DNA of 56,549 bases, filler included, from Jimgerdemannia flammicorona (lineage: Eukaryota): the NCBI GenBank assembly GCA_003990765.1. It is 3 parts of 3 records of this genome, joined end to end, with 100 filler letters (N's around TTAATTAATTAA, not from the genome) between each part and the next. Parts side by side here need not be neighbours in the genome. Positions count along the whole stretch, not along the records: positions 37,770 to 56,549 come from RBNJ01002118.1; 2 more parts are not named here. One strand, 5' to 3'. The first letter of the stretch is position 1, and each line of letters begins with the position of its first letter. Under the pieces are notes generated by a model. That model saw only the letters and a program-made list of their open reading frames with translations, was not told the origin of the DNA and did not search any database. This document shows positions 30,590 through 56,549 of this stretch, one piece after another. A program made the position numbers and the translations under genes.

Positions 30590-33500
30590 GCCAAGAATAC
30601 AAAGTACTTCACCAAGATTGATTTCACCTCTGGGTATCACTAAATTTGAATCAAACCAGAAGACATACCCAAGACTGCTTTTATGATATCCTTTGGACTT
30701 TATGAATTTCTAGTCATAGCCTTTAGTCTCACCAATGTGCCAGCAATCTTTCAAGATCTCATGCAAACTATCTTTAAGGATCAGCTCTATATCTTTGTAC
30801 TTGTATACATTGATGACATTCTGATCTTCAGTAGCACTGAAGAAGAGCACCTCAAGTACATTGAACAAGTCCTCAAGATCCTCTGTGAAAACAAGCTCTA
30901 TGTAAAACTCAAGAAATGTGAATTTTTCAAGGATCAAGTTGAATACCTTGGATATATTATATCAGCCAAAGAAATTCAAGTAGACCCAAGAAAAATACAA
31001 GCCATTGAACAGTGGCCTGTACCAGCAAACCTCACTGAACTCAGGTCCTTTCTTGGTCTAGCTGGATACTACTATCAATTTATCAAGAACTTCTCTGGCA
31101 TTACAGAATCTTTGACAAATCTCCTGTGAAAGAAACCCAACTCTGACCTCTATGTTCCCTACATCTGGGATGCTTTCTGTCAACAAGCTTTTCAAGAACT
31201 CAAGAACTGCCTGACCCATACACCTGTTCTTAGAAACATGGACCCAAACTTGAAGTTTATGGTCACTATAGATGTATCTAACTTTGCCATTGGTGTAGTC
31301 ATTTCTCAAGATGATGGTCAAGGACACCAACCTATTGCCTTTGAGTCAAGAAAATTGTCCCCAGTAGAACAAAAGCTGGCTACTCATAAAAAGGAACTTC
31401 TGGCAATCATATATATCCTCAAGATCTGGTGATACTACCTAGAAGGAGTTGAGTTTGACATAATCACTAATCATAGGTCCCTTCAGTATATCAATACTCA
31501 ATCAATCCTTTCTCGCCAATAAGCCAAGTAGAGTCAACTACTTTAGATCTTTACTCCAAACATCATCTACAAGCCTGGCAAAACTCTGGTTGTATCAGAT
31601 ACACTTTCAAAAAGACCTGACCTTGCTGCAATTTTACAAGTCACCATGGTATCTGAATTCCTCAATAAGATCAAGAAGGCATATGAACAAGACCCTCTGG
31701 TTCTACAAAGGAATACCAAGGAATTCAAGAAAAAGCATATTTTTTTTTTTTTTTTTATAATCACTTGGACTCATCCTTTATTACACCCTTCTATCCTATA
31801 TAAATACAATGAACCCACCCCCTATCCAATCCCCCTAGGGAGGTCTCTCTCTCCTACTCCTTCAATACAATTCCCACCCTCTCACCACTCTGTTTATATA
31901 TTCTCACCACCAAACCATGCTGCCGCCCCCTAGAAGGACCCTAACCAATCCACCATCCAGTCAACAAATCTCCCAACAGCTCCTCCCACCTCACAACCTT
32001 CTTCTACAGGCTCATCTGCCACCCCTCCTCAAACACAAATAGTCAATATCCCACCAGACCCACTCAAACTGCTAACACCCACCTGACAGTGAGCCAACTA
32101 TCACCCACCCCCCCCCACCAGCTGAGATCTCAAGTCCTCCCAACAGCCCCCTTCACCTGCTGGTCTGTACTCTACACCCAGTCTATTCTCTATTTCAACC
32201 CAAAAGTCCCCCAAAATCTCACACTCCTCCAGCCAATGTTCCAGTATCTGTACCAAACCCCCACCTTGCTCTATATTATAACACTCCTCACAGTCAAAAT
32301 AGCCACCATCCACCAGATGTCCAGTGTGGAAATTCAACATGATATTCCTCTGCAGCATTCACCACCACACTACCCAGAACTTGGGGAGAAGCCACCACCA
32401 CACCTCAGCACTCCAAGACCAGATACCTGCCCAGTTCCACTCCTTGCCGATCCTGACTACCTGCCAACTGCTCAGCCAAAGGTCCTGGCCAAGACCCTGC
32501 TGACACTCCACTCCATCCCCAATATCAAAAGTAATAAGTGAAGTACCCCCCAGAAGCAGTCTATTCCATCACCACATACGAGGACCCCACAACACCTCCC
32601 CCTCATTGCCTTATCAGCGTAGACCAATTCAGTATACTCCATCAACTACTCCCTATCAAAAGCCCTTAAATCGCAGCCACCAAATTCCATTGAGCCCTAC
32701 CAAAGAGAGTAGATCTCCTGAGGACCCTTGGGGGGAGGTTCTCATCTTCTACACCTTCTGCATCAGAAGCACCCAACCCCCTCCCTATAGTTCAGCCACC
32801 CTCTTCAGCCACCAGGCTCACAAGTAGTGCAACCTCTTAGGGAAATCCACAAGGCCAAGACCTCTCCTGTCCACTGGTGTCACAAGAGTATCCCAACTGA
32901 TCTGGGACCTCCTCCCTGCCCAAATCCAATCCCTAGCTACCTTTGTCAGCCTCTTCACTACCCAAGCTGGGAAGTCTAGGTGGTATCCCACATACCACAG
33001 CTTGGGGAATTTAGAATTAATACCCACCCTGCTAGAGAGATATGGCAGCCTCCCCAACCTTGAAGGGCCTCCCCCCAAATAGCCACCCTACTCTCCCACT
33101 ATACTTGTGACAAGACAGAACTATATACAGAGAGGAAGATGCCCAGATACCATACCACCTCACTAGTAGGAACAATTGTTCCAATGACATCCCCACCCAC
33201 TAGTCCATTCCCTAGCACTATAGTCTCACACTTATGCTAGTTGAGCTTTGCCCCAGAGTAAACCTCATACCATTCCACTGTCTCCTTAAGTACCTGAACA
33301 TCCGCCACAAACCCAAGGCCAACCACTATATCATCTGCAAAGGCCCCCACCTTCCACACTATGTCATAGATAGAGAGCCCCCCTACCTTCTGGTGAATCC
33401 TATCCATTAATGGTTCTAATGAGAGAGCATAAAGAATAGGGGATAAGGGATCCCCCTGAGGAACCCCTCTTTGCAAGGTAAATGTCTGACTATGGTGACC

Positions 33501-35200
33501 ATTACACATCAGTACTACCTGACTGCCCTTGAGCAGATTTACCATAGAAGCCTGAAACCCAGGAGAAACACTAATACAATCCAACACCTTGCCCAGCCAA
33601 ACCCTCCAGACCCAGTCATAGGCCTTCTCCTGATCCAAAAAGACCAGCCTTCCATCCAGGCCACAAGCCCGGGCCCCTTCAATGACACCATGCACCCAAG
33701 CAGTCCCATCTCTAATAAGCCTGTCTCTAACAAAGCCCTGCTACTCCTCCCCCAGCACCTGTTGGGCAACCTTCTGCAGTCTGGTGACAACCACCTTAGT
33801 TACTATCTTTCTGTCCATGTCCAAGAGTATGATCGGTCACCAGGAAAAGCACACCATTAAGGACAACCTTGTGTACTATCAAGACAAAGTATATATTCCT
33901 GTCAACTCTGAACTACAGTATAAGATTCTTCATGAACATCATGATTCCCCACTAGCTGGTTACCTTGGAACTGAGAAGACCATCAAGAATATCCAATGAG
34001 ACTACTACTGGCCAAACATGCTCAAGAAAATCAAGGAGTATGTCTAAAGTTATGATCTTTGCCAAAGAAACAAGTCAAGCAACCAAGTACCCGCTGGTCT
34101 TCTGCAACCCCTGCCAATTCTAACCAAGAAGTTCGAACAAGTTACAATGGATTTCATTGTACAACTCCCATGAACCAAAATAGACTATGATGCTATTGTT
34201 GTGTTTATGGACCATCTCACCAAGATTACAATTGCTGAGCCAACTACAACCAATGCTACTGCCCCAGAAATTGCAAGAATCTTCTTCAAGACTGTCTTCT
34301 GCCATTATGGACTCCCCTAAGTAATTATCAGTAACCGCAACCCCAAGTTCATAAGCCACTTCTGGTAAGTACTCTTCAAGATCCTTGGAACCCAAATTGC
34401 TATATCTACTACCTTCTACCCCCAAACTGATGGACAGACTGAGTGAATGAACAGAACATTTGAACAAATACTCAGAAACTACATGTCTTATGAGCAAGAT
34501 GATTGGGACCACTATCTGACCTATGCTGAGTTCATCTACAACAATGCCACCTAATTATCAACTGGTCTTTCTCCATTTCAGCTACTTCACAGTCAAAACC
34601 CTGAGACCTCTATAAGCCTAGTCCCATTTCAGCAATCCAGTCACACACAAGTCTCCACAGCTTAGAACCTTATTGACAAAATGGATTCTCTTCTCAAGAT
34701 TGCCACTATGAACCTATAAAAGGCTCAGTAATACCAAGCTAAGTATGTAGATAAGAAGCAGTAAGATGTCATATACAATATTGATGATATAGTTCTACTC
34801 AAAGCTGATAACATCAAGGCTCAATCTCAAGTCAACCACCAGTCAGCTAAATGTACCTTGGACCCTTTGAGATTACTAAGCAAGTCTCTACCTGGTCTTA
34901 CTGTCTCAACTTGCCAACAATCATGTGTATATACCCAGTATTCCATATGTCACAACTCAAGGCCTGGAACCAGTTACCCCATACCCTGGCCAAATTCTGA
35001 CACTATCAGCACCAGTCATAGTTGAAGATCACATCAAGTATGAAGTTGAGAAAATCTTAAACAAGTGAGTCTGATACCATCATACAGAATACCTAGTCAA
35101 GTGGATAGGCTACTCTGAATATGATGCCACCTGGGAATCTGCTGCCAATCTCAAGAACTCCCAAGATCTCATCTAAGAGTTCAAGCAAAAAAGAACTCAT
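30590..35200 (+). pseudogene. pol: pol of element B (RT, RNase H, integrase, chromodomain), split by a LINE
   Basis: KYFTKIDFTSGYH, VYIDDILIFS, VTIDVSNFAIG, HEHHDSPLAGY, VTMDFI, PQTDGQTE, and YEVEKIL...YLVKWIGYSEYDATWE at ~35035-35190. Confidence 0.9.
31739..33839 (-). mobile_element. 5'-truncated L1/Tx1-like LINE inserted in element B
   Basis: RT motifs LDQEKAYD, RGVPQGDPLSP, AFADD; C-terminal CEEC..EHWLEEC; poly(A) tail (T run 31740-31756); eroded TSD AGAAAAAGCATAT / AGGAAAAGCACAC. Confidence 0.9.
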
Positions 35201-37669: not shown

Positions 37670-37769
37670 NNNNNNNNNNNNNNNNNNNNNNNNNNNNNNN
37701 NNNNNNNNNNNNNTTAATTAATTAANNNNNNNNNNNNNNNNNNNNNNNNNNNNNNNNNNNNNNNNNNNN
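37670..37769. other. Artificial assembly spacer N44-TTAATTAATTAA-N44
   Basis: Identical to 18790-18889; preceded by a poly-T run. Confidence 0.97.
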
Positions 37770-39719
37770 CCCCAGACCTCAGAATCTCAGACTCGAACAT
37801 ATAAGAACATTCCTGAACACTTCTCCACAATACCCTTTACACAAATACTCCTAGTATAGCAATATCATGATTAGCAAATAAACCTATTCTATAACCCACA
37901 AACCACTCTTAAGTAAATCCGCTCCCTGTTAGGTCCTACTCCTAACCCTATTACGAAATTTCCTAATTGGGTATTGTCTGCAGTGATACGCGAATTCAAC
38001 TAAGCTGGTTTTAGTTTTTTAAACTTCCTGAAATACGGAAAATCCTGAACATCAAGAACTAGTCCAAAAAAAGGACTTTGGTTGAGATGTCAACCCGATC
38101 TTGAAATCAATAAGCATAGAGGACATACTCCATACAAAATTGATCTTGACCATAAGAAAACAGTCTTCCAGAATATCTGGAATATCCAGAAAACCTTTCC
38201 AGAACTACGTAACGGTTACCCTAAAAAGTAACCCTCTTACAACTTGGTAGCAGCGGTTTACAATCCAATTCTGCTTCAAGATGCTTCCTCACCCCACTAC
38301 AAACCCCTCTGCAAATTCCTACAAGTTGGTATAAAGCCCAACCTCTGAACTGGAATTTATCCGAACCATCTGACAATCTGGAGAGAATTGAATCTGACGT
38401 ACAAGGACAATTTGACCTCCACACCTGCAACAAGTGGGATAAACTTCATTCAAAGAAAGAAGTACTCAAGTTAAACCAGCAAATAGGTGAAACCCTATTC
38501 ACCGAACTCCTTGCACTACACCCAGCAAGTCAAGATGAAGAAGGTCTTATTGAAGCCTTCTTTACTCTTCTCAACAAGAGTTTTGTCAGCTCCACAAATC
38601 CGAGCGACCTAGGACAACCAGCAGCAGTCTTTTTAGCCTAAGTTCCTCACAAAGCCCAAGCCTCTGTAGCCAAGTGGCTCAACTCTACTGACTTTCACTG
38701 CACCAGTACTAAGACCGCCTTATACTACTGATTCCAGAACAGCAAGGCCTGCCATATTCTTAAAGAAGAAGCAAGAGAAACCCTTCATCTCCTACCTGAC
38801 CCCGAACCTGAAGCAGGCCCTGCTACAGCCCTACCTGAATCTGTAACCAATACTAAACCAGAACTTGACTTTGAATGAAGTCTGTCTGAAATCAGATATA
38901 CAACTGATTCTGTCTACTTTGATGCTGAGCAAACCCAATTACACGGAGACCAAACCGAAGAAGAGGAGGAGTATCTCAGTGAATTCGATCCCAGATATAC
39001 TACTGAAGGAGAAGCACCTCCATCAGGACAGAATACACCTACTCAGCAACAAACAGCTACCTATCAAGCCCTTACTCCAGATCCACAACTACTACTCCAG
39101 CAACTTACACAGACCCAAAGAACTCTATCACATTCTGCACCAGTACCTCAAGTAGTACGTAACACCACTACCAGCAGTCCAACCACCTCCAGTAAACAAC
39201 ATGGCGAACCAACAGATTCTTGACCTCACAGCCCAGGTAGTCATAATGGCAGCAATCATTACTGCCTTAGCTGAACAGACCTGATCTACCAAAAATCTGA
39301 GCCTACCTACCTTCAATGGTACTGCACAAGAAGTCCAAAGCTTCATTAGTGTAGTTGATACCAACTTCGAAGCCAATCAATGGACCAATGAGCGAGTTGC
39401 TGACCACATTCTGACAAACAATCAAGACCACACTCTGGAACAACTCTTTGCTATCACTACATCTGTAAGCACACAACCTCCAAGCCACTGAAATTACATG
39501 TAACCTCCGAACAAATCTGGAAATCACCTGCTTGATCACGAAGCTGAGTCAAACTGAAGTCACAGTGCATAAAGATGAGTCAATATGAAGTCACGGAACA
39601 CAAGATTTACACAAACGGAACCTTACCAATCAGGACCAAATGCATATATACCGAGCACCAAGACGCGTCAAATCAGAGAACCAAAACAAACAACAACCAC
39701 AACTTCCAAACACACAAAC

Positions 39720-40815
39720 ATGACCACTGAGATCTACAACTGTATCTGCACTGACATTTGGAATGCCATTGTCAACCAAGCCACACCCCCTCTGCCCCTC
39801 ATGAATATCCATAGCCTGGCACCCCTCTACTTCGTGGAAGCCTGATGGAATGCTCTGTATATGCTTAGCAAGGCCCACTGAATCGGACAAATCTCAAGCT
39901 ACTACCAGATCGACCACCTCCTGGAAGATATGGTGGAACACCACCATGATACAGACATTACCCAGATGTCTCAACACCAGAAGCTCATTGCCTGCAAACA
40001 TCGAGAACTCTTCTATGAGTACAGTACCATTATTCCCCACCTCCGAGTTACTACCAGCGAGATGGTTGCTACCCTGTCCTATGGCCAAATTGATGACATG
40101 ATACAAGAACTCAACCACAAGTACCTCAAGTACGTCAAAACCACAGATAGAACCTTCCCACACCCCAATGATCAAATCCTGCAAATGCCCCAAGTTGGAT
40201 ATGCTATGAAGGATGTCTACGATATAATCCACTTCGATGAAGACAAAGCAGAAGACAATGACTCCTCTGACACCAACATGAGCTCTAGCCAAGGATCTCT
40301 GCCAACCCTGATCACTCTACCAATCTTATCAATGAACTTACAACAGTTCATAACAGTATACAAGACTTATTGGGACAATGACCACTGGCATGAATACCAA
40401 CCCGCATTTATCCCCGACTACTTCAACTACAATGAAGAGACCAGAGAACACAACCTGTACCTCCAGACAACCCTCGAGATTGAACCAACCACTCCACCAC
40501 CTGAGTATGAGCGACCTGAACCACAACCACCAGCTTACTACAATCCTGCAACTCATAGTGCTATAACCTATAGAAGGTATGCAGACAGTGAATCTGACGA
40601 AAGTGAAGACAATATACCCATTCTTCGCCCACCAACCTTATCCAGCCTACAAGACAGACGATGCTATCCTGTGGGACAGAGACGAAGTCCCAATGTATTA
40701 CTACCTCAGTGAACAAGGAGAAGTAATCCATGAACCACTCTTCCTAGATGACTACTTTATCAGAGATGATGTCATCGATGGGGATGTCATCGAAGACTAC
40801 CCAGACAGCGCCTAA
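39720..40815 (+). pseudogene. LTR(U3)-encoded ORF of unknown function, copy 1 (consensus 365 aa)
   Basis: MTTEIYN...IEDYPDSA*; two TGA stops that are CGA in other copies; 2-nt deletion near 40636. Confidence 0.8.
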
Positions 40816-40993
40816 ACCCAGCAGTCATAGTATAGTTAGATTAGCATTGTACAACGTGACTGTGAACTGACTCAGCAGTCAGACGATCTCTTGACATGTC
40901 AGATCACACTTGTACTATGTGACTGCATTCCGACTCAGCAAAGCACTTAGTGCTACATCCATATCTAGCATAGTCCAGATAGCCCCTCACTAG

Positions 40994-41122
40994 TATAAAT
41001 ACCCTCTCCCCCAGATCTCAGAATCTCAGACTCAAATACACAAGAACATTTCTGAATACTTCCCTACAATATCCCTTTACACAAATACTCCTAGTATAGC
41101 AATATCATGAATAGCAAATAAA
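40994..41122 (+). promoter_or_regulatory. Main LTR TATA box (TATAAAT 40994-41000) and poly(A) signal (AATAAA 41117-41122)
   Basis: Conserved in the 3' LTR (~49254 and ~49355); position fits U3/R. Confidence 0.6.
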
Positions 41123-41462
41123 CCTATTCCATAACCCACAAACCACTCTTAAGTAAATCCACTCCCTGTTAGGTCCCACTCCTAACCCCATCACGAAATT
41201 TCCTAATTGGGTATTGTCTGCAGCGATACGCCAATTCAACTAAGCTGGTCTTAGTTTCTTGAACTTCCTGAAATATGGAAAACCCTGAACATCCAGAACT
41301 AGTCCGGAAAAGGACTTTGGTTGAGATGTCAACCCGATCTTGAAATCATAAGCATAGAGGACATACTCCATATGAAATTGATCTTGACCATAAGAAAACG
41401 GTCTTCCAGAATACCCAGAACTTCCAGAAAATCCTTCCAGAACTACGTAGTGGTTACCCTAA

Positions 41463-42440
41463 AAAGCAACCCTCTTACAACTTGGTAGTAGTAGTTTGCA
41501 ATCCAATTTCGCTTCAAGATGCTTCCTCACCCTGCTACAAAACCTTCTGAGAATTCCTACAAGTAGGTATAAAGCCCAACCTCTGAACTGGAATTTATCC
41601 GAACCATCTGCCAATCTGGAGAGAATTGAACCTGACATACAAGGACAATTTGACCTCCACACCTGCAACAAGTGGGACAAACTTCATTCAAAGAAAGAAG
41701 TACTCCGGTTAAACCAGCAAATAGGTGAAACCCTATTCACCGAACTTCTTGCACTACACCCAGCAAGTCAAGATGAAGAAGGTCTTATTGAAACCTTCTT
41801 TACTCTTCTCAACAAGAGTTTTGTCAGCTCCACAAATCCGAGCGACCTAGGACAACCAGCCGTTGTCTTTCTAGCCTTAGTTCCTCACAAAGCCCAAGCC
41901 TCTGTAGCCAAGTGGCTCAACTCTACTGACTTTCACCGCACCAGGACCAAGACTGCCTTATACTACTGATTCCAGAACAGCAAGGCCCACCATATTCTTA
42001 AAGAAGAAGCAAGAGAAACCCTTCATCAACTACCTAACCCCGAACCTGAAGCAGGCCCTGCTACAGCCCTATCTGAATCTGAAACCAATACTGAACCTGA
42101 ACTTGACTTTGAATTAAGTCCATCTGAAATCAGATATACAACTGATTCCGTCTACTTTGACACCGAGCAAACCCAATTACACAGGGACCAAACTGAAGAA
42201 GAGGAGGAGTATCTCACTGAATTCGATCCTGGATACACCACTGAAGGAGACACATGTCCATCAGGACAGAATACGCCTACACAGCAACAAACAGCTATCT
42301 ATCAAGCCCTTACTCCAGATCAACAACTACTACTCCAGCAACTTACACAGACCCAAAGAACTCCATCACACTCTGCACCAGTACCTCAAGTAGTACTAGT
42401 AACACTACTACCAGCAGTCCAACTGCCTCTAGCAATCAAT
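41463..42440 (+). other. AUG-less reading frame in phase with gag (~326 codons, one internal TGA)
   Basis: Same frame as the gag ATG at 42441; colinear frame in D1 ~38225-39200. Confidence 0.55.
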
Positions 42441-45400
42441 ATGGCAAACCAACAGATTCTTGATCTTACAGCCCAAGTAGCTATAATGGCAGCGACTATT
42501 ACTGCCTTAGCTGAACAGACCCGACCTACCAAAAATCTGAGCCTACCTACCTTCAATGGTACTGCACAAGAAGTCCAAAGTTTCATTAGTGTAGTTGACA
42601 CCAACTTCGAAGCCAATCAATGGACCAATGAGCGAGTTGCTGACTGCGTTCTGACAAACAATCAAGACCATACCCTGGAACAACTCTTTGCTACAACTAC
42701 AGCTTATATCTGCTGAGTTGTTACATTCTACAGAGGACCTGCCAAAGAATGGTGGTGAACTCTTCTGAAAAACCCCTCACATGGGATACCCAACCTGCAG
42801 TAGTTGCTCAGAATGCAGCAAACAATACCCCAGGATATGGAGCCCATCCTGCAGCCCCTGGACTCAAACAACTCATAATTGCTCAATACTGCAGCAAAAC
42901 CATGATTGCTGAATCTCAAGTAAAACTCCGCAACCTCAAATTTGATGTACATGGCAAAGAAGTATTCGAAACCTTCTATACAAACTTGAGTCACTCCTGA
43001 ACACTGTTGGCCTAGGATATATCGCCAATGATGAAGCATGAAATGGTACAAGAGCAGACCATTTATTCGATGCACTGCCTGAATGGCTTACTAGAAAAAT
43101 CCAAGAACAAGGCCGCCCAGTTGGTTGTGATCACCAACAATAGTGCCTGGTAAGAATCAAGACCATGGTCAAGCAAATCCTAACAGCTGGACCAATTCTG
43201 CCCCAAAGACAATTCAATAACAAGAAAAGGACTTGGACCAAGAAAGAAGAACCCAAGCATGAAGCATCCCGAGCTCCCTCCACATCCACCTCTTGGACAC
43301 CCAGAAATCATGAACCCACCCAGCCGAGTACCTTCAAGAAACTCACCAAAGGTGAAAGGAATGAACTTCAAAGAAGTGGAGCATGTTTCTATTACTGAAA
43401 GACAGGACATATGGCCAGTGCCTGCCCCAACCGAAAACCCCGAACAGCAACACAAGCAACTGTTACCACTCTTCACCACCTCAACAATCTGACTACCAGA
43501 ATACTGGACTTTGTCAAGTTAAGACAAACTACTAAAGCCCCAACCAAAGGAAGTCAAAAAGCAGCGGGATATGACCTGTATGCAGCTGAAGAAGCTACAG
43601 TTTCCAACCAAGAAGTCAAATAAGTCTATATAGGAATCAGTATCCAAATCCCTGAAGGACATGTTGGAAGAATATGCTGTCACAGCAGCCTAGCACTGAA
43701 AGGACTCTCAGTAGAAGGAGGAGTCATTGATGAAGATTACACAGGTGAAATCATTGTCCTCATTCGAAACCACAGTTGGACACCCTTCAAGATCCCTATT
43801 GGTTTCTGCATTGTCCAGATCCTATTTGAAAAAATCGAGTCAACCCTGACAGTCAAGGAAGTCCCTGAACTACTGCCCACCATCTGAGGATCCAAAGGAT
43901 TTGGTTCATCAAACAAGGCCCCAGCCCAACCTACTATGAGCAAAGAAGAACAATTCTACAAGAAGATCAAAGATGGATATGTACCAAGTGGCCGATGCCC
44001 TTATGGAATTGGAATGTACTCTTCCCGGATGATTGATGATTGCTTCTCTTGTGTCAATGAACTGGCTCAAAGAAGAACCAACAGAAGAAAGGCTCCTACA
44101 ACTGAAATCACCACTATCGGATCAGACAAACTGCTCACCCTTAAGGCTTTTGTCAACAGAGCACCTGTCAAGATTATGATAGACAGTGGTGCCTCAGGCA
44201 ACTTCATTAATGAAGAGACACCCAACAGACTCAAAGTCTTCACCTCCCCAGTACAGCAAACTCAAGCAGTTGCTACAGCTGATGGAACCTCACATGTTAT
44301 TAGCAAAGAAGTCCGCAATCTACCCTTCCGGATTGGCGACTACCGAGTGCATGTTACCCTCCAAATCATACCACTTTCCAACAATGAAATCATCCTTGGG
44401 ACTCTATGGTTAAAGCAAGAGAACCCCATGATTGATTGGGTAAACCATTCTCTGACCATCAAGAAAGGATGCCACAACTTCAAACTATAAGGTGAAAAGG
44501 ACCCACTCAACTCTAGTGACCCTGGACCAAAGATCACCCACATCAACAAGCTACAACTCAAGAAATTGGCCAAGAAATGCCCTCTCTTCGCCATCTCCAT
44601 CCGACCATCCAAAGGAGAACCTGAGAACTCCAAAAAAGATTTTTCCAAAGTTGACAGCCGTGTCAGACCACTACTCCAGAAATTCCGAGACATATTTCCA
44701 AAGAAGCTCCCGAAAGGCCTACCTCCCAAACAAGTAGTAGACCATGCAATCAAGACTATCCCAGACAACAAACCAGCCTTCAAGTCAATCTACCACATGT
44801 CTCTGAGGGAAATTGATGGACTCAAGAAAGAAATCGACGAACTCCTAGAACAAGGATTCATCAGACCTAGCATATCACCCTATGACGCACCAGTCCTCTT
44901 TGTTGTCAAGAAAGGAGGAGACCTACGAATGTGCATTGACTACCGCGATCTCAATGAACAGACCATCAAGAACTGTTGCCCACTACCAAGAATCAATGAA
45001 ATATTCAATAGACTTACCAACCCACAATTCATGAGCTCTTTTGACCTGCGAAATGGTTACTGGCAAATTGCCATGAAAGAAGAAGACATCTATAAGACAG
45101 CTTTCCGAACACGCTATGGACACTTCGAGTTCCTGGTTATGCCCTTTGGCTTAACTAATGCTCCAGCAACCTTCCAGACACTGATGAATACCATTCTGCA
45201 TCCATATCTGGACAAATTCATTGTTGTCTATATTGATGACATCCTAGTCTTCAGCAAAACCCTGGAGGAACATCTTGAACACCTTAAACTAGTACTACTG
45301 AAACTCCGAGAAAACCGACTCTTTTCAAAACTCAGCAAGTGCAAATTTCTTCTGAAAGAAATTCAATTCCTTGGACACATTGTTACTCCAAATGGAATCA

Positions 45401-47571
45401 AAGTGGACCCCAGCAAAATCTCTGCAATCAAAGATTGGCCCAGACCGAAGAAGCTAAAAGACCTCCAGTCATTCCTGGGATTAGCAAATTATTACAGGCG
45501 ATTTGTTGCCAACTCTGCTAAAATCACTACTGCCCTTATCCAAATGACCAAGCACAGCAAGAAACAAGAATAACCCTGGACCATGAAACAAGAGAAAGAC
45601 TTCAACAATCTTGTAAATTGGGGACACGAGCAAGATACTGCCTTTCAAGCACTGAAAGATGCCTTGATAACAACTCCAGTACTTCAAGTAGCAAACCCTG
45701 CCCTACCATACGAAGTCACTACTGATGCCTCTGACCTAGCTCTTGGAGCAGTGCTTATGCAAGAAGGACACTCTGTGGCCTACTACTCCTGCAAGTTCAA
45801 TGATGCCAAAATCAACTATGCAACTCACGAGAAGGAAATGCTAGACATTGTAGACACTCTGATCAAATAGCGACCATACCTAGAAGGAGCATACTTCATG
45901 GTATTGACTGACCACAAGTCATTAGTCAACAACAAGACACAGGCTACCCTTTCTCGAAAGCAAGCCAGATAGATGAAAGTCCTCACCAACTTTGACTACA
46001 AAATCCAGTACTGCCCTGGCAAGGAAAATATTGTTACCGATGCAATCTCCAGACTACCAATTGAAGAGGTTATCCAAACTCTGACCTTGGTTACCAACAC
46101 TATCATGGAACAAATCATCGTAGCATGTGTTGATGATAAAGAAGCTCAAGCACTCTAAGAAATCCTGAACAGTGATGATACTGACAAGCATACCTGGTAC
46201 AACCAATATCAACTCAAGGACAATACTATCTACTACAAGGATAGACTGTATGTTCCAAACTACCGAGACCTCCGAAGGACTATTCTATTTGAATATCATG
46301 ATGCCCCTACAGCTAGACATTTAGGATTTGACAAATGCTATGAAGTTATCTCCTGAAACTTCTATTGGCCCTGCATGGCAGATTAGCTCAAAACCTATAT
46401 TACTTCCTGTGATGCCAACCAACAAAACAAGTCCTCAATACTAGCAAAACCCAGCTTACTCCACCATATCCCGGTACCATCCACAAATTGGGAACAAATC
46501 TCTATGGACTTCATTGTACAACTACCCCGAACCAAGAATGAGAAAGATGCAATTGTTGTCTTTGTGGACTACCTCAGCAAACAAGCCTACTTTGTGCCTA
46601 CTACCACTACTGCAACAGCACCAGATATAGCCACACTCTTGTTCGACAACATCTTCCGCTATCATGGTCTTCCTAAGATCATTGTTAGTGACCGAAATCC
46701 GAAATTCACTAGCCATTTTTGGAAAGCCCTCCATGCACACCTTGGAACAAAACTTGCACTATCCACAGCCTTTCACCCAGAAACTGATGGCCAAACTGAA
46801 AGAATGAACTGAACTCTAGAACAAATGCTAAGGAATTATGTTTCCTACAGACAAGATGACTAGCATGAACACCTCACTGCAGTTGAGTTTGCCTACAACA
46901 ATAGTAAGCAAGCCTCTCTTGGAATGACTCCATTCTTCACCAACACTGTACAAAATCCAAACACCCTTTTGATGCTTATCCGAACTATCGAGGAACTCTC
47001 TAGAGTCGAAGCTGTTGAAGAATTCCTACTCCGAATGTGCAATCTAAGCCAGATTGCAATTGAGAATTTGTCACGAGCTCAAGAACAACAATCACAGTAT
47101 GTTAACCAACACTGCCGAGAAGAAACCTTTGACATCAGAGAAAAAGTTCTACTAGACATCAGAGGATACTGAGTTGACAACCTCAAGCACAGACTATCTA
47201 CAAAGCTGAACAGCAAGTTCATTGGACCATTGGAAGTCATCGCACAAGTCTCTCCAACCTCCTACAAACTGGCGCTACTAGATACCATCAAGATTCACCC
47301 AGTCTTTAATGTTCAATGTCTCAAGCGATACAATGACAATGATGATGAACTATTTCCAAACTGGACCACCAAACCACCTGCACCTGTTATCATTAATGAC
47401 TAAGAAGAGTACAAAGTTGAACAAATCCTCAACAAACACAGTAACAAGAACCACCCTGAGTACCTTGTCAAATGGAAAGGTTATCTGATCCATGATGCAA
47501 CTTGGGAACCCAAGACCAATCTCCAGAATGCTACTGACCTAGTTCAGGAATATGATTCCTTGAATAACTAG
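42441..47571 (+). pseudogene. D2 gag-dUTPase-protease-RT-RNase H-integrase-chromodomain polyprotein, disabled
   Basis: CFYY*KTGHMASAC knuckle; [75 protein letters not shown]; 43165-47571 all in one frame. Confidence 0.93.
43500..43915 (+). pseudogene. dut: dUTPase domain of D2, between Gag CCHC and protease
   Basis: AAGYDL, HSSLA, GGVIDEDYTGEI, IVQIL, *GSKGFGSS. Confidence 0.92.
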
Positions 47572-47967
47572 AACCAAATATTCCACACCTATCTGTATAT
47601 ACTATATATTATCCTCCCGAACATTATAATTATTGTAAACCAAACCAAGAACTCAGCAGAACAAAATTAGAAGGCCCTGATGAGGATGTCGAAAGCTAAG
47701 AAGGGGAGAGTTGTAAGCACACAATCTCCAAGCCACCGAAATTACACGTGACCTCTGAACAAATCTGGAAATTACCTGCTTGATCACAAAGCTGAGTCAA
47801 ACTGAAGTCACAGCGTACAAAGATGAGTCAATATGAAGTCACGGAATTCAAGATTTACACAAACGGAACCTTACCAATCAGGACCAAATGCATATATACT
47901 GAGCACCGAGATGCATCGAATCAGAGAACCAAAACAAACAACAACCACAACTTCCAAACACACAAAC

Positions 47968-49064
47968 ATGACTACTGAGATCTACAACCGTATCCGTGCT
48001 GACATTTGGAATGCCATTGTCAACTGAGCCACACCCCCTCTGCTCCTCATGAATATCCATAGCCTGGCACCCCTCTACTTCATGGAAGCCCAATGGAATG
48101 CTCTGAACATGCTTAGCGAGGCCCACCGAATTGGACAAATCTCAAGCTACTACCAGATCAGCCACCTCCTGGAAGACATGGTTGAACACCACCATGATAC
48201 AGACATTACCCAGATGTCTCAACACCAGAAGCTCATCGCCTGCAAACATCGAGAACTCTCCTATGAGTACAGTACCATTATTCCCACCTCTGAGTTACTA
48301 CCAGCAAGATGGTTGCTACCCTGTCCTATGGCCAAATTGATGACATGATACAAGAACTCAACCACAAGTACCTCGAGTACGTTGAAACCACAGATAGAAC
48401 CTTCCCACACCCCAATGATCAAATCCTGCAAATGCCCCAAGTTGGATATACCATGAAGGATGTCTACGATATAATCCACTTCGATGAAGACGAAGCAGAA
48501 GACAATGACCCCTCTGATGCCGACATGACCTCTAGCCAAGGATCTCTGCCAACCCTGATCACTTCACCAACCTTGCCAATGAACTTACAATAGTTCATAA
48601 CAGTATACGAGACTTATTGGGACAATGACCACTGGCATGAATACTAACCTGCATTCACCCCTGACTACTTCAACTATAATGAAGAGACCGGAGAATACAA
48701 TCTGTACCTCCAGACAACCCTCGAGATTGAACCAACCACTCCATTACCTGAGTACGAGCAATATGAACCACAGCCGCCAGCTTACTAAAATCCTGCAACT
48801 TATAGTACTGTAACCTATAGAAGGTATGCAGACAGTGAATCCAACGAAAGTGAAGACAATATACCCATCCTTCGCCCACCAACACCTTATCCAGCCTATG
48901 AGACAGGTGATGCTATCCTGTAGGATGGAGACAAAGTCCCAATGTATTACTACCTCAGCGAACAAGGAGAAGTAATCTGCGAACAACTCTTCCTAGATGA
49001 CTACTTTATCAGAGATGATGTCATGGATGGTGATGTCATTGAAGACTACCCAGACAGTGCCTAA
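47968..49064 (+). pseudogene. LTR(U3)-encoded ORF, copy 2
   Basis: Same protein; 1-nt deletion near 48284; stops at codons that are sense in copy 1. Confidence 0.8.
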
Positions 49065-49717
49065 ACCCATAAATAGCCTAGCAGTCATAGTATAGTTAGA
49101 TTAGCATTGTACGACGTAACTGTGAACTGACTCAGCAGTCAGATGATCTCTTGACATGTCAGATCACACTTGTACTACGTGACTGCATTCCGACTCAGTA
49201 AAGCACTTAGTGCTACATCCATATCTAGCATAGTCCAGATAGCCCCTCACAAGTATAAATACCCCCTCCCCCAGACCTCAGAATCTCAGACTCGAACACA
49301 CAAGAACATTCCTGAATACTTCCCTACAATATCCCTTCAATATCATGAATAGCAAATAAACCTATTCCATAACCCACAAACCACTCTTAAGTAAATCTGC
49401 TCTCTGTTAGGTCCCACTCCTAACCCCATCACGAAATTTCCTAATTGGGTATTGTCTGCAGCGATACGCCAATTCAACTAAGCTGGTCTTAGTTTCTTGA
49501 ACTTCCTGAAATACGGAAAACCCTGAACATCCAGAACTAGTCCAGAAAAGGACTTTGGTTGAGATGTCAACCTGATCTTGAAATCATAAGCATAGAGGAT
49601 GTACTCCATATGAAATTGATCTTGATCATAAGAAAACAGTCTTCCAGAATACCCAGAACTTCCAGAAAACCCTTCCAGAACTATGTAACAGTTATCCTAA
49701 AAAGCAACCCTCTTACA

Positions 49718-52700
49718 ATATTCTATGTCCACTGAGTTGTTACATTCTTCCAAGGACCTGCCGAAGAATGGTGGCAAACCCTTCCTGAAAAACCCCTCAT
49801 ATGGGATACCTGACCTGCAGTAGTTGTCCAGAATGCAGCAAACAATGCCCCAGGATATGGAGCCCATCCTGCAGCCCCTGGACTCAAACAACTGATGATT
49901 GCTCAATATTACAGCAAAACTATAATTGCTGAATCTCGAGTAAAACTCCATAACCTCAAATTTGATGTATATGGCAAAGAAGAATTCGAAACCTTCTGTA
50001 CAAAACTCAAGTCACTCCTGAACACTGTTGGCCTAGAATATATCACCAATGATGATGCATGAAATGGTACAAGAGCAGACCATTTATTTGATGCCCTGCC
50101 TGAATGGCTTACTAGAAAAATCCAAGAACAAGGCCACCCAGTTGGTTGTGATCACCAACAATGGTGCCTGGCAAGAATCAAGACTATGGTCAAGTGAATC
50201 CTAACAGCTGGACCAATTCTGCCTCAAAGACAATTTAACAACAAGGAAAAGACATGGACCGAGAAAGAAGAACCCAAGCATGAAGCATCTCGAGCTCCCT
50301 CCACATCCACCTCTTGGACCCCCCGAAACCATGAACCCACCCAGCCAAGTACCTTCAAGAAACTTACTGAAGGTGAAAGAAATAAACTTTGAAGAAGTGG
50401 AGCATGCTTCTATTGCTGAAAGACAGGACACATGGCCAGTGCCTGCCCCAACCGAAAACCCCAAACAACAACACAAGCAACTGTTACCGCTCTTCACCAC
50501 CTCAACAATCTGACTACCAGAATACTAGACTTTGTCAAGTTAAGACAAACTGCTAAGGCCCCAACCAAAGGAAGTCAAAAAGCAGCCAGATATGACCTGT
50601 ATGCAGCCGAAGAAGCTACAGTTTCCAACTGAGAAGTCAAACAAGTCTATACAGATATCAGTATCCAAATCCCTGAAGGACATGTTGGAAGAATATGCTG
50701 TCACAGCAGCCTAGCATTGAAAGGACTCTCAGTAGAAGGAGGAGTCATTGACGAGGATTACACAGGCGAAATTATTGTCCTCATCCAAAACCACAGTTGG
50801 ACACCCTTCAAGATCCCTATTGGCTTCTGCATCACCCAGATTCTATTCGAAAAAATTGAGTCAACCCTGACAGTTAAGGAAGTCCCCGAATTACTGCCCA
50901 CCATCCAAGAATTCAAAGGATTTGACTCATCAAACAAGGCCCTAGCCGAATCTACCATAAGCAAAGAAGAACCATTCTACAAGAAGATCAAAGATGGATA
51001 TGTACCAAGTGGCCAATGCCCTCATGGTATTGGAATGTACTCTTCCCAAATGATTCATGATTGCTTCTCTTGTGTCAACGAATTGGCTCAAAGAAGAACC
51101 AACAGAAGAAAGGCTCCTACAACTGAAATCACCACCATTGGATCAGACAAACTGCTCACCCTTAAGGCTTTTGTCAATGGAGCACCTGTCAAGATTATGA
51201 TAGACAGTAGTGCCTCAGGCAACTTCATCAATGAAGAGACAGCCAACAGACACAAGGTCTTCACCTGTCCAGTATAGCAAACTCAAGCAGTTGCTACAGC
51301 TGATGGAACCTCACATGTTATTAGCAAAGGAGTCTGCAATCTACCCTTCCAGATTGGCGACTACCGAGTACATGTTACTCTCCAAATCGTACTACTTCCT
51401 GACAATGAAATCATCCTTGGGACTCCATGGTTAAAACAAGAGAACCTCATGATTGATTGGGTAAACCATTCTCTGACCATCAAGAAAGGACACCACAACT
51501 TCAAACTATAAGGCAAAAAGGACTCACTCCACTCTAGTGACCCTGGACCAAAGATCACCCATATCAACAAGCTACAACTCAAGAAATTGGCCAAGAAATG
51601 CCCTCTCTTTGCCATCGCCATTCGACCATCCAAAGGAGAACCCGAGAACTCTGAAGAAGATTTTTCCAAAGTTGACAGCCGTGTCAGACCACTACTCCAG
51701 AAATTCTGAGACATATTCCCAAAGAAGCTCCCAAAAGGCCTACCTCCCAAACAAGCAGTAGACCATGCCATCAAGACTATCCCAGATACCAAACCAGCCT
51801 TCAAATCAATCTACCATATGTCTCTGAGAGAAATTGATGCACTTAAGAAGGAAATCGATGAACTCCTAGAACAAGGATTCATCAGACCCAGTGTATCACC
51901 CTATGGTGCACCAGTCCTCTTCGTTGTTAAGAAAGGAGGAGACCTGCGAATGTGCATTGACTACCATGATCTCAATGAACAGACCATCAAGAACTGTTGC
52001 CCACTACTGAGGATTGATGAAATATTCGATAGGCTCATCAACCTACAATTCATGAGCTCTTTTGACCTGTGAAATGGTTAATGTCAAATTGCCATGAAAG
52101 AAGAAGATATCTACAAGACAGCTTTCTGAACTCGCTATGGATACTTCGAGTTCCTGGTTATGCCCTTTGGCTTAACTAATGCTCCAGCAACCTTCCAGAC
52201 ACTGATGAATACCATTCTGCATCCATATCTGGACAAATTCATTATTGTCTACATTGACAACATCCTAGTCTTCAGTAAAACCTTGGAGGAACATCTTGAA
52301 CACCTTGAACTAGTACTACTGAAACTCCGAGAAAACCGACTCTTTCCAAAACTCAGCAAGTGCAAATTTCTCCTAAAAGAAATTCAATTCCTTGGACACA
52401 TTGTCACTCCAAACAGAATCAAAGTGGACCCCAGCAAAATCTCTGCAATCAAGGATTGGCCCAGACCCAGAAAGCTGAAAGACCTCCAGTCATTCCTGGG
52501 ATGAGCAAACTATTACAGGTGATTTGTTGCCAACTTTGCTAAAATCGCTACTGCCCTCACCCAAATGACCAAGTACAGCAAGAAACAAGAACAACCCTGG
52601 ACAATGAAACAAGAGAAAGACTTCAACAATCTTGTAAATTGGAGACCCGAACAAGATACTGCCTTTCAAGCACTGAAAGATGCCATGATAACCACACCAG

Positions 52701-54591
52701 TACTTCAAGTGGCAAATCCTGCCCTACCATACAAAGTCACTACTGATGCCTCTGACCTAGCTCTTGGAGCAGTGCTCATGCAAGAAGGACACCCTGTGGC
52801 CTATCACTCATGCAAGTTCAATGATACCGAAATCAACTATGCAACTTACAAGAAGGAAATGCTAGCCATCGTAGACACTCTGATCAAATGGCGACCATAT
52901 CTAGAAGGAGCACACTTCACTGTATTGACTGACCACAAGTCATTAGTCAACATCAAGACACAGGCTACCCTTTCCCGGAAGCAAGCCAGATGGATGAAAG
53001 TCCTCACCAACTTTGACTATGAAATCCAGTACTGCCCTGGCAAGGAAAATATTGTTGCCGATGCAATCTCCAGACCACTAATTGAAGAGGTTATCCAAAC
53101 TCTGATCTTGGTTACCAACACTATCATGGAACAAATCATTGCAGCATATGATGATGATAAAGAAGCTCAGGCACTCTGAGAAATCCTGAACAATAATGAT
53201 ACTGACAAGCATACCTGGTACAATCAATACCAACTCAAGGACAATGCTATCTACTATAAGGACAGATTGTATGTACCAAACAACCGAGACCTCCGAAGGA
53301 CTATCCTATTCGAATGTCATGATGCCCCTACAGCTGAACATTTTGGATTTGACAAATGCTATGAAGTTATCTCCCAGAACTTCTATTGGCCCCACATGGC
53401 AGAACAGCTCAAAACCTACATCACTTCCTGTGATGCCTGCCAATGAAACACATCCTCAACACTAGCAAAACCTGGCTTACTCCACCCTATTCCAGTACTA
53501 TCCACAAATTGGGAACAAATCTCTATAGACTTCATTGTACAACTACCCCGAACAAAGAATGGGAAAGATGCAATTATTGTCTTTATGGACTATCTCAGCA
53601 AACAAGCCCACTTTGTGCCTACTACCACTACTGCAACAGCACCAGACATAGCCACACTCTTGTTTGACAACATCTTCTGCTATCATGGTCTTCCTAAGAT
53701 CATTGTTAGTGACCGAGATCTGAAATTCACCAGCCACTTTTGGAAAGCCCTCCATGCACACCTTGGAACAAAACTTGCACTATCCACAGCCTTTCACCCA
53801 GAAACTGATGGTCAAACTGAAAGAATGAACCGAACACTGGAACAAATACTAAGGAACTATGTTTCCTACAGACAAGATGACTGGCATGAATACCTCACCA
53901 CAGTTGAGTTTGCCTACAACAATAGCAGGCAAACCTCTCTTGGAATGACTCCATTCTTTGCAAACACTAGACAAAATCCAAATGCCTCTTTGAGACTTAT
54001 CCAAACCACTGAAGAACTCTCCACAGTCGAAGCCATTGAAGAATTCTTACTTCGAATGTGCAATTTAAGCCAGATTGCTATCGAGAATTTATCGCGAGCT
54101 CAAGAACAACAATCACAGTATGTTAACCAACACTGCCGAGAAGAAACTTTTGATATTGGAGAGAAAGTCCTACTAGACATCAGAGGATACTGAGTTGACA
54201 ACCTCAAGCTCAGACCATCTACAAAGCTGAACAGCAAGTTCATTGGATATTTGAAGTCATCACACAAGTCTCTCCAACCTCCTATAAACTGGCGCTACTG
54301 GACACCATTAAGATTCACCCAGTCTTTAATGTTCAACATCTCAAGCAATACAATGAGAATGATAAAAAGCTATTTCCAAACCAGACTACCAAACCACCTG
54401 CACCTGTCATCATTAATGACCAAGAAGAGTATGAAGTTGAACAAATCCTCAACAAATGTGGCAACAAGAACTACCCTGAGTACCTTGTCAAATGGAAAGG
54501 TTACCCGATCCACAATGCAACCTGGTAACCCAAGACCAACCTTCAGAATACCACTGACCTAGTTCAGGAATATGATTCCTTGAACAACTAG
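49718..54591 (+). pseudogene. D1 gag (3' part)-dUTPase-protease-RT-RNase H-integrase-chromodomain, disabled
   Basis: Colinear with D2; [61 protein letters not shown]. Confidence 0.92.
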
Positions 54592-55090
54592 AACCAAATA
54601 CTCCACACCTATCAATATACACTATATATTATCCTCCGGAACATATAATCATTGCAAACCAAACCAAGAACTCAGCAAAACAAGACAAGAATACTGACCC
54701 TCTGGAAAAATAGCCAAACTGAAAGCAAGCCTATTCTCTCTGCACCACTGAACAAAATTAGAAGGCCCCAATGAGGATGTCGAAAGCTAAGAAGGGGAGA
54801 GTTGTAAGTGCACAACCTCTAAGCCACTGAAATTACATGTCACCCTCTGAATAAGTCACTGAAATCACACATGACCTCTGAACAAACCTGGAAATCACCT
54901 GCTTAATCACAAAGCTGAGTCAAACCGAAGTCACAGTGCACAAAGCTGAGTCAATACAAAGTCACAGAACACAAGATTTACACAAACAGAATCTTACCAA
55001 TCAGGACCAAATGCATATATACCGAGCACCAAGATGCGTCAAATCAGAAAATCAAAACAAACAACAACCAGAACTTCCAAACATACAAAC

Positions 55091-56187
55091 ATGACCACTG
55101 AGATCTACAACTGTATCCATGCTAACATTTGGAATGCCATTGTCAACTGAGCCACACCCTCTCTGCCCCTCATGAATATCCATAGCCTAGTACCCCTCTA
55201 CTTCGTGGAAGCCCGATGGAATACTCTGAACATGCTTAGCGAGGCCCACCGAATCGGACAAATCTCAAGCTACTACTAGATCAGCTGCCTCCTAGAAGAC
55301 ATGGTCGAACATCACCACAATACAGACATTACCCAGATGTCTCAACACCAGAAGCTCATCACCCGCAAACATCAAGAACTCTTCTATGAGTACATCACCA
55401 TTATTCCCCACCTCCGAGTCACTACCAGTGAAATGGTTGCTACCCTGTCCTATGGCCAAATCAACGATATGATATAAGAACTCAACTACAAGTACCTCAA
55501 GTATGTCAAAACCACAGACGGAACCTTCCAACACCCCAATGATCACATCCTGCAAATGCTCCAAGTTAGATACACCATGAAGGACATCTATGATATAATC
55601 CACTTCGATGAAGATGAAGCAGAAGACAATGATCCCTCTGACACTGACATGACCTCTAGCCAAGGATCTCTGCCAACCCTGATCACTCTGCCAATCTTCC
55701 CAATGAACTTACAACAGTTCATAACTACATACGAGACTTATTAGGACAATGACCACTGGCATGAATACCAATCTGCATTCACCCCCAATTACTTCAACTA
55801 CAATGAAGAGACCAGAGAACACAACCTGTACCTTCAGACAACCCTCGAGATCAAACCAACCACTCCACCACCCAAGTACGAGCGACATGAACCACAGCCA
55901 CCAGCACACTATAACCCCGCAACTCACAGTGCCGTAACCTATAGAAGGTATGCAGATAGCAAATCCAATGAAAGTGAAGACAATATATCCATCCTTTGCC
56001 CACCAACACCTTATCCGGCATACGAGACAGATGATGCTATCCTGTGAGACGGAGACAAAGTTCCAATGTACTATTACCTCAGCAAGCAAGGAGAGGTAAT
56101 CCACGAACCATTATTCCTAGACGACTATTCATCAGAGATGATGCAATCGATGGTGATGTCATCGAAGACTATCCAGACAGCACCTAA
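55091..56187 (+). pseudogene. LTR(U3)-encoded ORF, copy 3 (D1 3' LTR)
   Basis: Same protein; 1-nt deletion near 56126; mostly private stops. Confidence 0.8.
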
Positions 56188-56372
56188 ACCCATAAATAGC
56201 CTAGCAGTCATAATATAGTTAGACTAGCATTGTACGACGTGACTGTGAACTGACTCAGCAGTCAAATGATCTCTTGACATGTCAGATCACACTTGTACTA
56301 TGTGACTGCATTCTGACTCAGCAAGGCACTTAGTGCTACATCCATATCTAGCATAGCTCAGATAGCCTCTCA

Positions 56373-56549
56373 TAGTGCTCCTAACAAGTCAATTTAATCC
56401 GGATTGGATTCAGATTGATTCGGATTCGAATCGGATTCGAATCGGATTCGAATCAACCATTGTTTTGATTTCCAAATTAGACAATTAAATGTTTACATCA
56501 ATAATTTGATGAATAATCATCCAAATTTGATGATCTTGGTGTCATTTGA
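56373..56549. mobile_element. Left end of a younger hAT-like DNA element inserted in the D1 3' LTR
   Basis: LTR homology stops at CCTCTCA|TAGTGCTC; same TAGTGCT terminus as the MITE at 24797; tandem TCGGATTCGAA subterminal repeats with intact CpG. Confidence 0.6.

Follow-up and report, generated by a model that had tools for sequence, protein, structure and literature searches.

A 365-codon reading frame in the U3 region of a chromovirus long terminal repeat from Jimgerdemannia flammicorona

Accessory genes set complex retroviruses apart from simple retrotransposons, and open reading frames (ORFs) inside U3, a part of the long terminal repeat (LTR), are known mainly from vertebrate retroviruses such as mouse mammary tumour virus (MMTV). 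The MMTV sag gene, a superantigen ORF in the U3 of the LTR, encodes a type II membrane glycoprotein (Sag), while foamy-virus Tas/Bel1 and human T-lymphotropic virus (HTLV) Tax are 3' regulatory genes that reach into U3. Here, we characterize a complete, sense-strand ORF in the U3 of an LTR of ~2.0 kb, which is present in three copies in two nested chromoviruses (Ty3/gypsy LTR retrotransposons with a chromodomain) of Jimgerdemannia flammicorona. The stretch of DNA analysed, hereafter the window, comprises 56,549 nucleotides (filler included) joined from three records of genome assembly GCA_003990765.1; the LTR and the elements that carry it are referred to as the D family. An earlier reading of the window, made from the sequence alone (the original prediction), had drawn attention to the ORF and proposed that it is an accessory gene.

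MMTV sag and the D-family gene are alike in that each is a complete sense ORF of ~1 kb in U3, present in both LTRs and copied at each replication. They differ in that the D-family protein, unlike Sag, has no hydrophobic segment and no Pfam or PDB match, and in that its host element is a chromovirus without env. Among LTR retrotransposons, extra ORFs between pol and the 3' LTR are described in passages of PMC7264820 for plant Athila, Grande, RIRE2 and Retand and, in the antisense orientation, for brtn of Botrytis Boty; passages of PMC8365987 and PMC6431247 also place extra ORFs 3' of pol, in the internal region. The named ORFs share with the D-family gene a position 3' of pol, an unassigned function and retention in the copies of a family. 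However, they are internal and lie upstream of the polypurine tract, whereas the D-family ORF lies downstream of it, inside the LTR; in addition, brtn is antisense and the D-family ORF sense. Chromoviruses with a dUTPase, the type to which the D family belongs, are known in fungi, where the main text of PMC2864245 describes Postia placenta PosPlaTy3, Phanerochaete and Tuber Tmt1 as Ty3/gypsy elements that carry both a chromodomain and a dUTPase. The legend to Figure 3 of that paper records an 'additional ORF with unknown function' in some fungal elements; its main text, as distinct from its supplementary table, gives no LTR-internal ORF for them, in contrast to the D family. In open-access literature text (the same supplementary table lying outside it), no LTR-internal ORF was found for any LTR retrotransposon. 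The D-family U3 gene combines two known kinds of gene: the additional ORFs of LTR retrotransposons and the U3 genes of retroviruses.

A reading frame shared by three U3 copies

The ORF occupies LTR positions 257–1352. Its ATG lies 256 nt inside the LTR and ~270 nt downstream of the polypurine tract, and the whole frame fits between the polypurine tract/LTR start and TATAAATA at 40994 (Table 1). All three copies start with CAAAC-ATG-ACC/ACT and end with TAA, and have the lengths of 1096, 1097 and 1097 nt given in the original prediction. They align to 1098 columns with one private deletion per copy, in keeping with the earlier claim that undoing a deletion of 1–2 nt restores each to 1098 nt. 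The gene is wholly in U3, because the polypurine tract (the plus-strand primer site) lies upstream of its ATG. It is therefore contained in the 3' end of the genomic RNA and copied to both LTRs at each replication cycle; both the location and the duplication had been anticipated, the latter following directly from the former.

The status of the repeat as an LTR rests on four features: (i) a polypurine tract, AAGAAGGGGAGAG, immediately 5' of TGTAAG at both 47712 and 54803, (ii) TG..CA termini, with the 3' terminus ..CTTACA at 41479 and 49717 being the inverted complement of the LTR start, (iii) a primer-binding site of the usual TGG type, beginning TGGTAG... at 41484, and (iv) a 5-bp target duplication, ACATC/ATATT, which bounds the stretch 39464–49717 and matches at three of five positions, both mismatches being C/T. 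The three LTR copies belong to a younger, inner element (39464–49717) inserted in the gag region of an older, outer one (37770–39463 plus 49718–56376). A tandem array of three LTRs was rejected in favour of this nesting, because the outer gag, once the inner element is removed, is rejoined and aligns in register with that of the inner element; the target duplication likewise argues for nesting.

Copies 1, 2 and 3 contain 3, 7 and 6 stops in the ORF frame, at 12 codon columns. Of the 366 codon columns, a single one reads as a stop in every copy, namely that of the terminal TAA; the corresponding numbers are 12 and 17 for the other two sense frames and 3, 21 and 20 for the antisense frames. At each of the 11 internal stop columns, at least one other copy presents a sense codon. 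Ten of these columns are C>T or G>A transitions, including codon 42, which reads TGA, CAA and CGA in the three copies; codon 274 (TAC/TAA/TAT) needs a transversion. Hence, the proposal that the stops are products of deamination is upheld at ten columns, among them the codon 42 example that had been cited for it, and fails at codon 274. When columns are called by majority rule, a single internal stop is left in 365 codons, at a position where the database protein P0004 (see below) has Arg. Overall, 166 of the 1098 ORF columns are variable, and 149 of the 166 are transitions. Chance does not account for the frame, which was open in the ancestor. All three copies in the window are dead, mainly as a result of C>T and G>A transitions together with one small deletion each.

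Could the frame nevertheless be no gene, but a chance opening on a T-poor, G-poor strand whose stops are 'restored' as an artefact of undoing deaminations? The strong A+C richness of the sense strand (GC skew −0.2 to −0.35, AT skew +0.13 to +0.29) does lower the frequency of stops, and structure predictors find no confident fold for the product. Yet the two other sense frames, on this strand and of this composition, contain 12 and 17 stops common to all copies, where the ORF frame has 0 internal ones. Moreover, the restoration is free of assumptions, since each of the 11 internal stop columns has a sense codon in some other copy; the codon score described below is frame-specific and positive in every ORF block; and two independent database proteins follow the same frame. 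We find this explanation hardly credible.

An extension of pol into the ORF was also considered. The copy-2 ORF is in frame with the chromodomain, but at least two intervening in-frame stops are common to all copies, and the extension was rejected.

Coding signal and relatives of the U3 frame

Codon usage was scored with a model trained on 1370 pol codons from the same elements. The ORF frame reaches +0.22 bits per codon in copy 1 and +0.20 in copy 3, compared with −0.01 to −0.46 for the other five frames and −0.10 to −0.39 for the flanking parts of the LTR; the score is above 0 in six of six ORF blocks. A score of −0.36 was obtained for the 45 open codons 5' of the ATG, and the ATG at 39720 is therefore favoured as the start. 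The competing start at 39585 would add these 45 codons, which are open in all copies, but its ATG is missing in copy 3.

The two LTRs of an element are identical at insertion, and differences private to either inner-element LTR are therefore neutral, post-insertion decay. There are 80 of these in the ORF, distributed 36/16/28 over codon positions 1/2/3. The 83 differences that set the outer-element LTR apart, in which divergence of the active lineage is counted as well, are distributed 26/10/47, a third-position excess relative to the private differences (chi-square P = 0.02). Columns with a transversion or more than two states show a distribution of 1/5/11 (n = 17; binomial P = 0.008). In a neutral simulation in which codons 115–365 drifted to 65% amino-acid identity (400 runs each at kappa 2 and kappa 6), the frame was still open in one of 400 runs at kappa 2 and nine of 400 at kappa 6, with a mean of 3.9–4.7 stops.

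Two database proteins are related to the predicted product. The first, P0004 (128 aa, 92% identity), starts with MTTEIYN as does the window ORF, and reads Arg at three codons (20, 42 and 54) for which TGA occurs in window copies. The second, P0003 (247 aa, 64–65% identity), ends at the C-terminus of the ORF, and both gaps in its alignment with copy 1 are whole codons (2/2). Blocks conserved between the P0003 lineage and the window in the C half are YQPAF.PDYFNYNE, EHNLYLQTT, PYPAYK.DDA.LW and YFIRDDVID. When P0003 was used as the query, only P0003 itself was returned from 81 candidates; a search for a 'shorter' relative returned only P0004 from five candidates. Scans for the DNA of relatives confirmed 0 of 188 pattern matches in metagenome_contigs with alignment A3, 0 of 92 in the same collection with P0004, and 0 of 134 in viral_contigs with alignment A3. 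Two further proteins with weak matches, P0005 (E = 9e-8, 436 aa) and P0006 (E = 2e-7, 2101 aa), are repetitive, with 38–47 residues matched repeatedly, and were set aside as uninformative.

We take the frame to be coding because (i) its codon usage is like that of pol, (ii) the differences between elements show a third-position excess, (iii) two relatives follow the same frame, and (iv) neutral drift rarely leaves such a frame open in the simulation. Judging from these sequence comparisons, selection seems to have kept the frame open before the copies decayed.

These same data bear on the idea that the ORF is passive cargo: a host gene or a piece of a mobile element, transduced to the 3' end of one chromovirus lineage and still open as a result of recent capture. 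LTR retrotransposons do capture ORFs downstream of pol, according to passages of PMC6431247 and PMC7264820, and an orphan with very few relatives is what a lineage-restricted capture predicts. However, searches of 1.84 billion representatives and 5.8 billion clusters brought up no relative among host genes. In addition, the frame is found in all three LTRs of two elements and, in a lineage of 64% identity, is open to the same stop; its codon usage matches that of pol; and the between-element differences show a third-position excess. Capture as cargo is, on balance, decidedly unlikely.

The predicted protein, its possible expression and its role

The predicted product has 365 aa and a net charge of about −41, to which the N half contributes −12 and the C half −29. 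The C half consists of 11% Asp, 11% Pro, 9.5% Glu and 9.5% Tyr. The maximum 19-residue hydropathy is 1.12, and no hydrophobic segment, signal peptide or membrane segment is present. An AlphaFold2 model has helices to about residue 170 and little regular structure beyond, with a mean predicted local distance difference test (pLDDT) of 35.4, which makes it unreliable; the Atlas model of P0003 has a pLDDT of 0.39. Pfam gave nothing above threshold (best, TIP120 with E = 0.052 and 13.8 bits against a cut-off of 25.9), the best match of a PDB profile search had E = 0.24, and the ESM Atlas gave no usable match. The original prediction, which recognised no Gag, Env or host domain and described a helical N half followed by an acidic, Pro/Tyr-rich C half, agrees with these searches, with the composition and with the low-confidence helices. 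The predicted layout runs from a helical N half (~170 aa) through a variable acidic/Ser linker to a conserved C half rich in Asp, Glu, Tyr and Pro. The protein is an orphan, predicted to reside in the cytosol or nucleus.

Candidate signals for expression are present on either side of the ORF. The borders of U3, R and U5 are inferred from the sequence. In all three LTR copies, two TGAGTCA motifs and a TATATA lie 70–175 nt 5' of the ATG, and the ORF leader is A/C-rich with A at −3; across the window, TGAGTCA occurs 20 times where 11.8 are expected. A further TGAGTCA lies on the other strand, 3' of the ORF.

Such motifs are also the starting point for a cis-acting explanation, in which the region would serve mainly as nucleic acid (for instance as an enhancer in U3, in packaging or RNA stability, or as a source of small RNAs) and the frame would be a by-product or dispensable. 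U3 regions do hold regulatory repeats, and TGAGTCA sites flank the ORF on both sides; the abstract of PMC8365987 describes LTRs of Botrytis retrotransposons as sources of small RNAs. A cis-acting role nonetheless gives no reason for 365 codons of openness, for gaps that are whole codons in both cases between P0003 and copy 1, or for the third-position bias, and we regard it as highly improbable.

Turning to other sequencing runs, contigs from X1 (a soil metagenome) and from the runs with the labels organism A and organism B cover the whole element; 8147 pieces of run X1 fall on the element, 1017 of them at least 99% alike. Contigs of runs X1 and X2 carry the base that is missing from copy 2, a C inserted behind 48282. 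In runs X7 and X17, a few short pieces cover the 5' part of the ORF, from which no conclusion on expression was drawn, as contigs reveal neither the starts and ends nor the levels of transcripts. The contigs show no joint indicative of splicing to a subgenomic RNA; the only recurrent joint, 49250->41000, reflects LTR continuity across the analysis cut and is no splice.

A separate observation concerns contig depth in the two small runs X7 and X17, which were guessed to be RNA and may be DNA. Positions 41000–41551 (R-U5) hold most of it, with a summed contig depth in bin 41000–41275 of 932 (X7) and 4579 (X17), against 0–38 elsewhere in the element. The excess could come from another repeat that shares R-U5, or from short LTR-driven transcripts.

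Taken as a whole, we propose, with a probability of about 0.62, that the ORF is a genuine extra chromovirus gene in U3, kept open by purifying selection in active ancestors, and a possible self-regulator. The gene sits 3' of pol, in a position corresponding to that of env, nef, sag or bel in retroviruses, and reverse transcription copies it to both ends of every new insertion. While the ancestors were active, purifying selection would have held the frame open, with the window copies decaying afterwards. The preferred route of expression would be the small U3-internal promoter (the two TGAGTCA motifs and TATATA), with a transcript ending at the AATAAA of the LTR; alternatively, the protein could be made from a spliced subgenomic RNA. 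The protein would probably regulate the expression of its own element, with the acidic, aromatic-rich C half perhaps acting as an activation or adaptor region, by analogy with foamy-virus Tas or HTLV Tax.

Several points weigh against this proposal. Firstly, no single copy seen anywhere is intact over its full length. Secondly, the statistical signals are modest: the tests yielding P = 0.02 and P = 0.008 involve small counts; variable columns are no rarer in the ORF (166/1098, 15.1%) than in the rest of the LTR (58/440, 13.2%); and transversion density, at 17/1098 in the ORF against 13/440 in the non-ORF LTR, does not differ significantly (P = 0.10). The similar variability would be expected from post-insertion decay, and adds no support for coding. 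Thirdly, convincing relatives number only two among 1.84 billion representatives, and the N- and C-terminal ends are supported by different ones (P0004 and P0003, respectively). P0003 begins at an internal Met (codon 115), which may mean that the P0003 copy is broken upstream or that the gene is shorter in that lineage. Residence of the ORF in an LTR is established for the D family of the window only. Finally, neither the AlphaFold2 model (pLDDT 35.4) nor the Atlas model of P0003 (0.39) offers a confident fold, and the promoter, transcript and function of the U3 gene are read from sequence only. The interpretation put forward in the original prediction therefore survives in part: the chromovirus LTR, the U3 location, the ancestral openness, the coding-like behaviour and the lack of a match to a Gag, Env or host domain all stand, and its suggestions of anti-silencing, drive or host manipulation and of persistence in solo LTRs are conjectures.

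The suggestion that the protein controls the transcription or RNA handling of its own element, in a Tas-like way, is prompted by the position of the gene, the acidity of the product and its aromatic-acidic C-terminus. Tas/Bel1, Tax and the D-family gene are alike in being 3' accessory genes near or in U3 with an acidic C-terminal region. The D-family protein has, however, no sequence or fold similarity to Tas or Tax, and the likeness lies in position and composition. We hold this specific function to be less likely than not. If the internal promoter and the acidic C-terminal region are what they appear to be, a positive-feedback switch on the LTR is possible. A bolder version, which we consider unlikely, would make each LTR a self-contained cassette that combines the ORF with a small promoter in the initial 256 nt of U3 and with the poly(A) signal of the LTR. 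A Tas/Tax-like acidic activator or anti-silencing factor would then switch on the main LTR promoter in trans and solo LTRs would be helpers for the family, amounting to a retrovirus-style circuit in a fungal-type retrotransposon.

If the proposed U3 gene is real, vertebrate retroviruses are not the only setting in which a 3' gene can become part of U3 through a shift of the polypurine tract. Solo LTRs outnumber full elements in many genomes; LTRs and solo LTRs would be potential protein-coding units, hidden from annotation by repeat masking, and annotation pipelines that assume LTRs to be non-coding will miss U3 genes of the D-family type. The gene would also be a candidate retrotransposon-encoded regulator or counter-silencing factor in a genome with heavy C>T and G>A decay of repeats.

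The host elements and their surroundings

The D-family elements are chromoviruses bearing a dUTPase. This class is assigned because the pol domains occur in the order protease, reverse transcriptase, RNase H and integrase (43936–46812), a chromodomain forms the C-terminus of integrase and ends at the pol stop, and the LTR, polypurine tract, primer-binding site and target duplication are all present (Table 1). The original attribution of the LTR to a chromovirus was correct.

Table 1. Coordinates of the U3 ORF copies, their candidate signals and the two nested D-family elements
Feature	Position	Strand	Details
U3 ORF copy 1	39720..40815	+	1096 nt; 2 internal TGA stops; 2-nt deletion after 40634 (columns 915-916)
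U3 ORF copy 2	47968..49064	+	1097 nt; 6 internal stops; 1-nt deletion, column 315
U3 ORF copy 3	55091..56187	+	1097 nt; 5 internal stops; 1-nt deletion, column 1037
Possible U3-internal promoter module	39545..39650	+	TGAGTCA at 39545 and 39576; TATATA at 39645; inferred
Main LTR promoter and poly(A) signals (predicted)	40994..41122	+	TATAAATA at 40994; AATAAA at 41117; sequence reading
Outer (older) element, 5' part	37770..39463	+	5'-LTR R-U5 end (to ~38240) and gag start; begins at contig join
Inner (younger) element, 5' LTR	39464..41479	+	2016 nt; TG..CA; termini TGTAAG/CTTACA
Inner element, internal region	41480..47711	+	gag, dUTPase, protease, reverse transcriptase, RNase H, integrase, chromodomain; pol stop 47569
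Primer-binding site, inner element	41484..41495	+	TGGTAGTAGTAG; sequence reading
CCHC knuckle remnant (gag), inner element	43384..43425		
dUTPase, inner element	43534..43911		Pfam PF00692, E = 3.4e-30
Aspartic protease	43936..44490		Pfam RVP_2, E = 1.2e-11, within interval
Reverse transcriptase	44566..45573		Pfam RVT_1, E = 1.6e-36, within interval
RNase H	45583..45870		Pfam RT_RNaseH_2, E = 1.1e-25, within interval
Integrase core	46504..46812		Pfam rve, E = 4.4e-09, within interval
Chromodomain	47404..47568		Pfam PF00385, E = 2.2e-17
Polypurine tract, inner element	47699..47710	+	sequence reading
Inner element, 3' LTR	47712..49717	+	alignment and sequence reading
Outer element, remainder	49718..54802	+	rest of gag, dUTPase, protease, reverse transcriptase, RNase H, integrase, chromodomain, polypurine tract
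dUTPase, outer element	50717..50932		Pfam, E = 1.6e-11
Outer element, 3' LTR	54803..56376	+	truncated by unrelated sequence just before its TATA box

BLAST of 39001–42000 against the window aligned 39464–41480 with 47712–49718 (92% identity, 2030 columns), and BLAST together with a whole-window self-comparison aligned 39482–40994 with 54853–56376 (89%, 1526 columns). The self-comparison further paired 42705–47672 with 49724–54691 (91.6%, 4970 columns) and 37770–39464 with 41009–42704 (92%, 1698 columns). The copy of the primer-binding site in the outer element is TGGTAGCAGCGG, and the outer CCHC knuckle is intact except for a stop codon at 50405. Both elements carry the dUTPase at the amino end of Pol, with the gag zinc knuckle on one side and the protease on the other.

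The outer 5' LTR is cut by a contig end. Two identical linkers of the form N44-TTAATTAATTAA-N44 occupy 18790–18889 and 37670–37769; they are six-frame-stop spacers joining at least three contigs, and adjacency across them is therefore not real. At the other end, the sequence that cuts the outer 3' LTR (56377–56549) starts TAGTGCTCC..AAC.AGTCAAT and continues with GGATTCGAATC-like short repeats. Very similar sequence adjoins the LTR at a different site (loose end 41174) in run X7. A likely source of 56377–56549 is one end of a different mobile element, which would have inserted into D-family LTRs on more than one occasion. Near the 5' end of the outer 3' LTR (54803–54870) there is a short tandem duplication (~25–40 nt) of a CCACTGAAAT.ACA motif. 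Contigs of other runs show joints that 'go back' at the corresponding place, 47729–47753; the number of CCACTGAAAT.ACA repeats therefore differs among copies.

No solo D-family LTR occurs within the window. Two other LTR-like repeat pairs do: 13322–13603/17702–17987 (286 nt, spaced 4.4 kb apart) and 29055–29459/35519–35920 (405 nt, 6.5 kb apart), the latter enclosing reverse transcriptase and integrase remnants on the minus strand (33237–33695 and 34114–34545). These are ordinary short LTRs, and within the window the D-family LTR of ~2 kb is exceptional.

In the inner element, ~1.9 kb (41481–43383) separate the primer-binding site from the gag zinc knuckle, an unusually long gag or leader region. 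One frame is open over long stretches of it (for example 41496–41969, 157 aa) and has no Pfam match; the region possibly holds another domain of a new type. Lastly, positions 38000–56549 show a marked strand asymmetry (GC skew −0.13 to −0.35, AT skew +0.12 to +0.29), the D-family sense strand being rich in A+C and poor in T and G.

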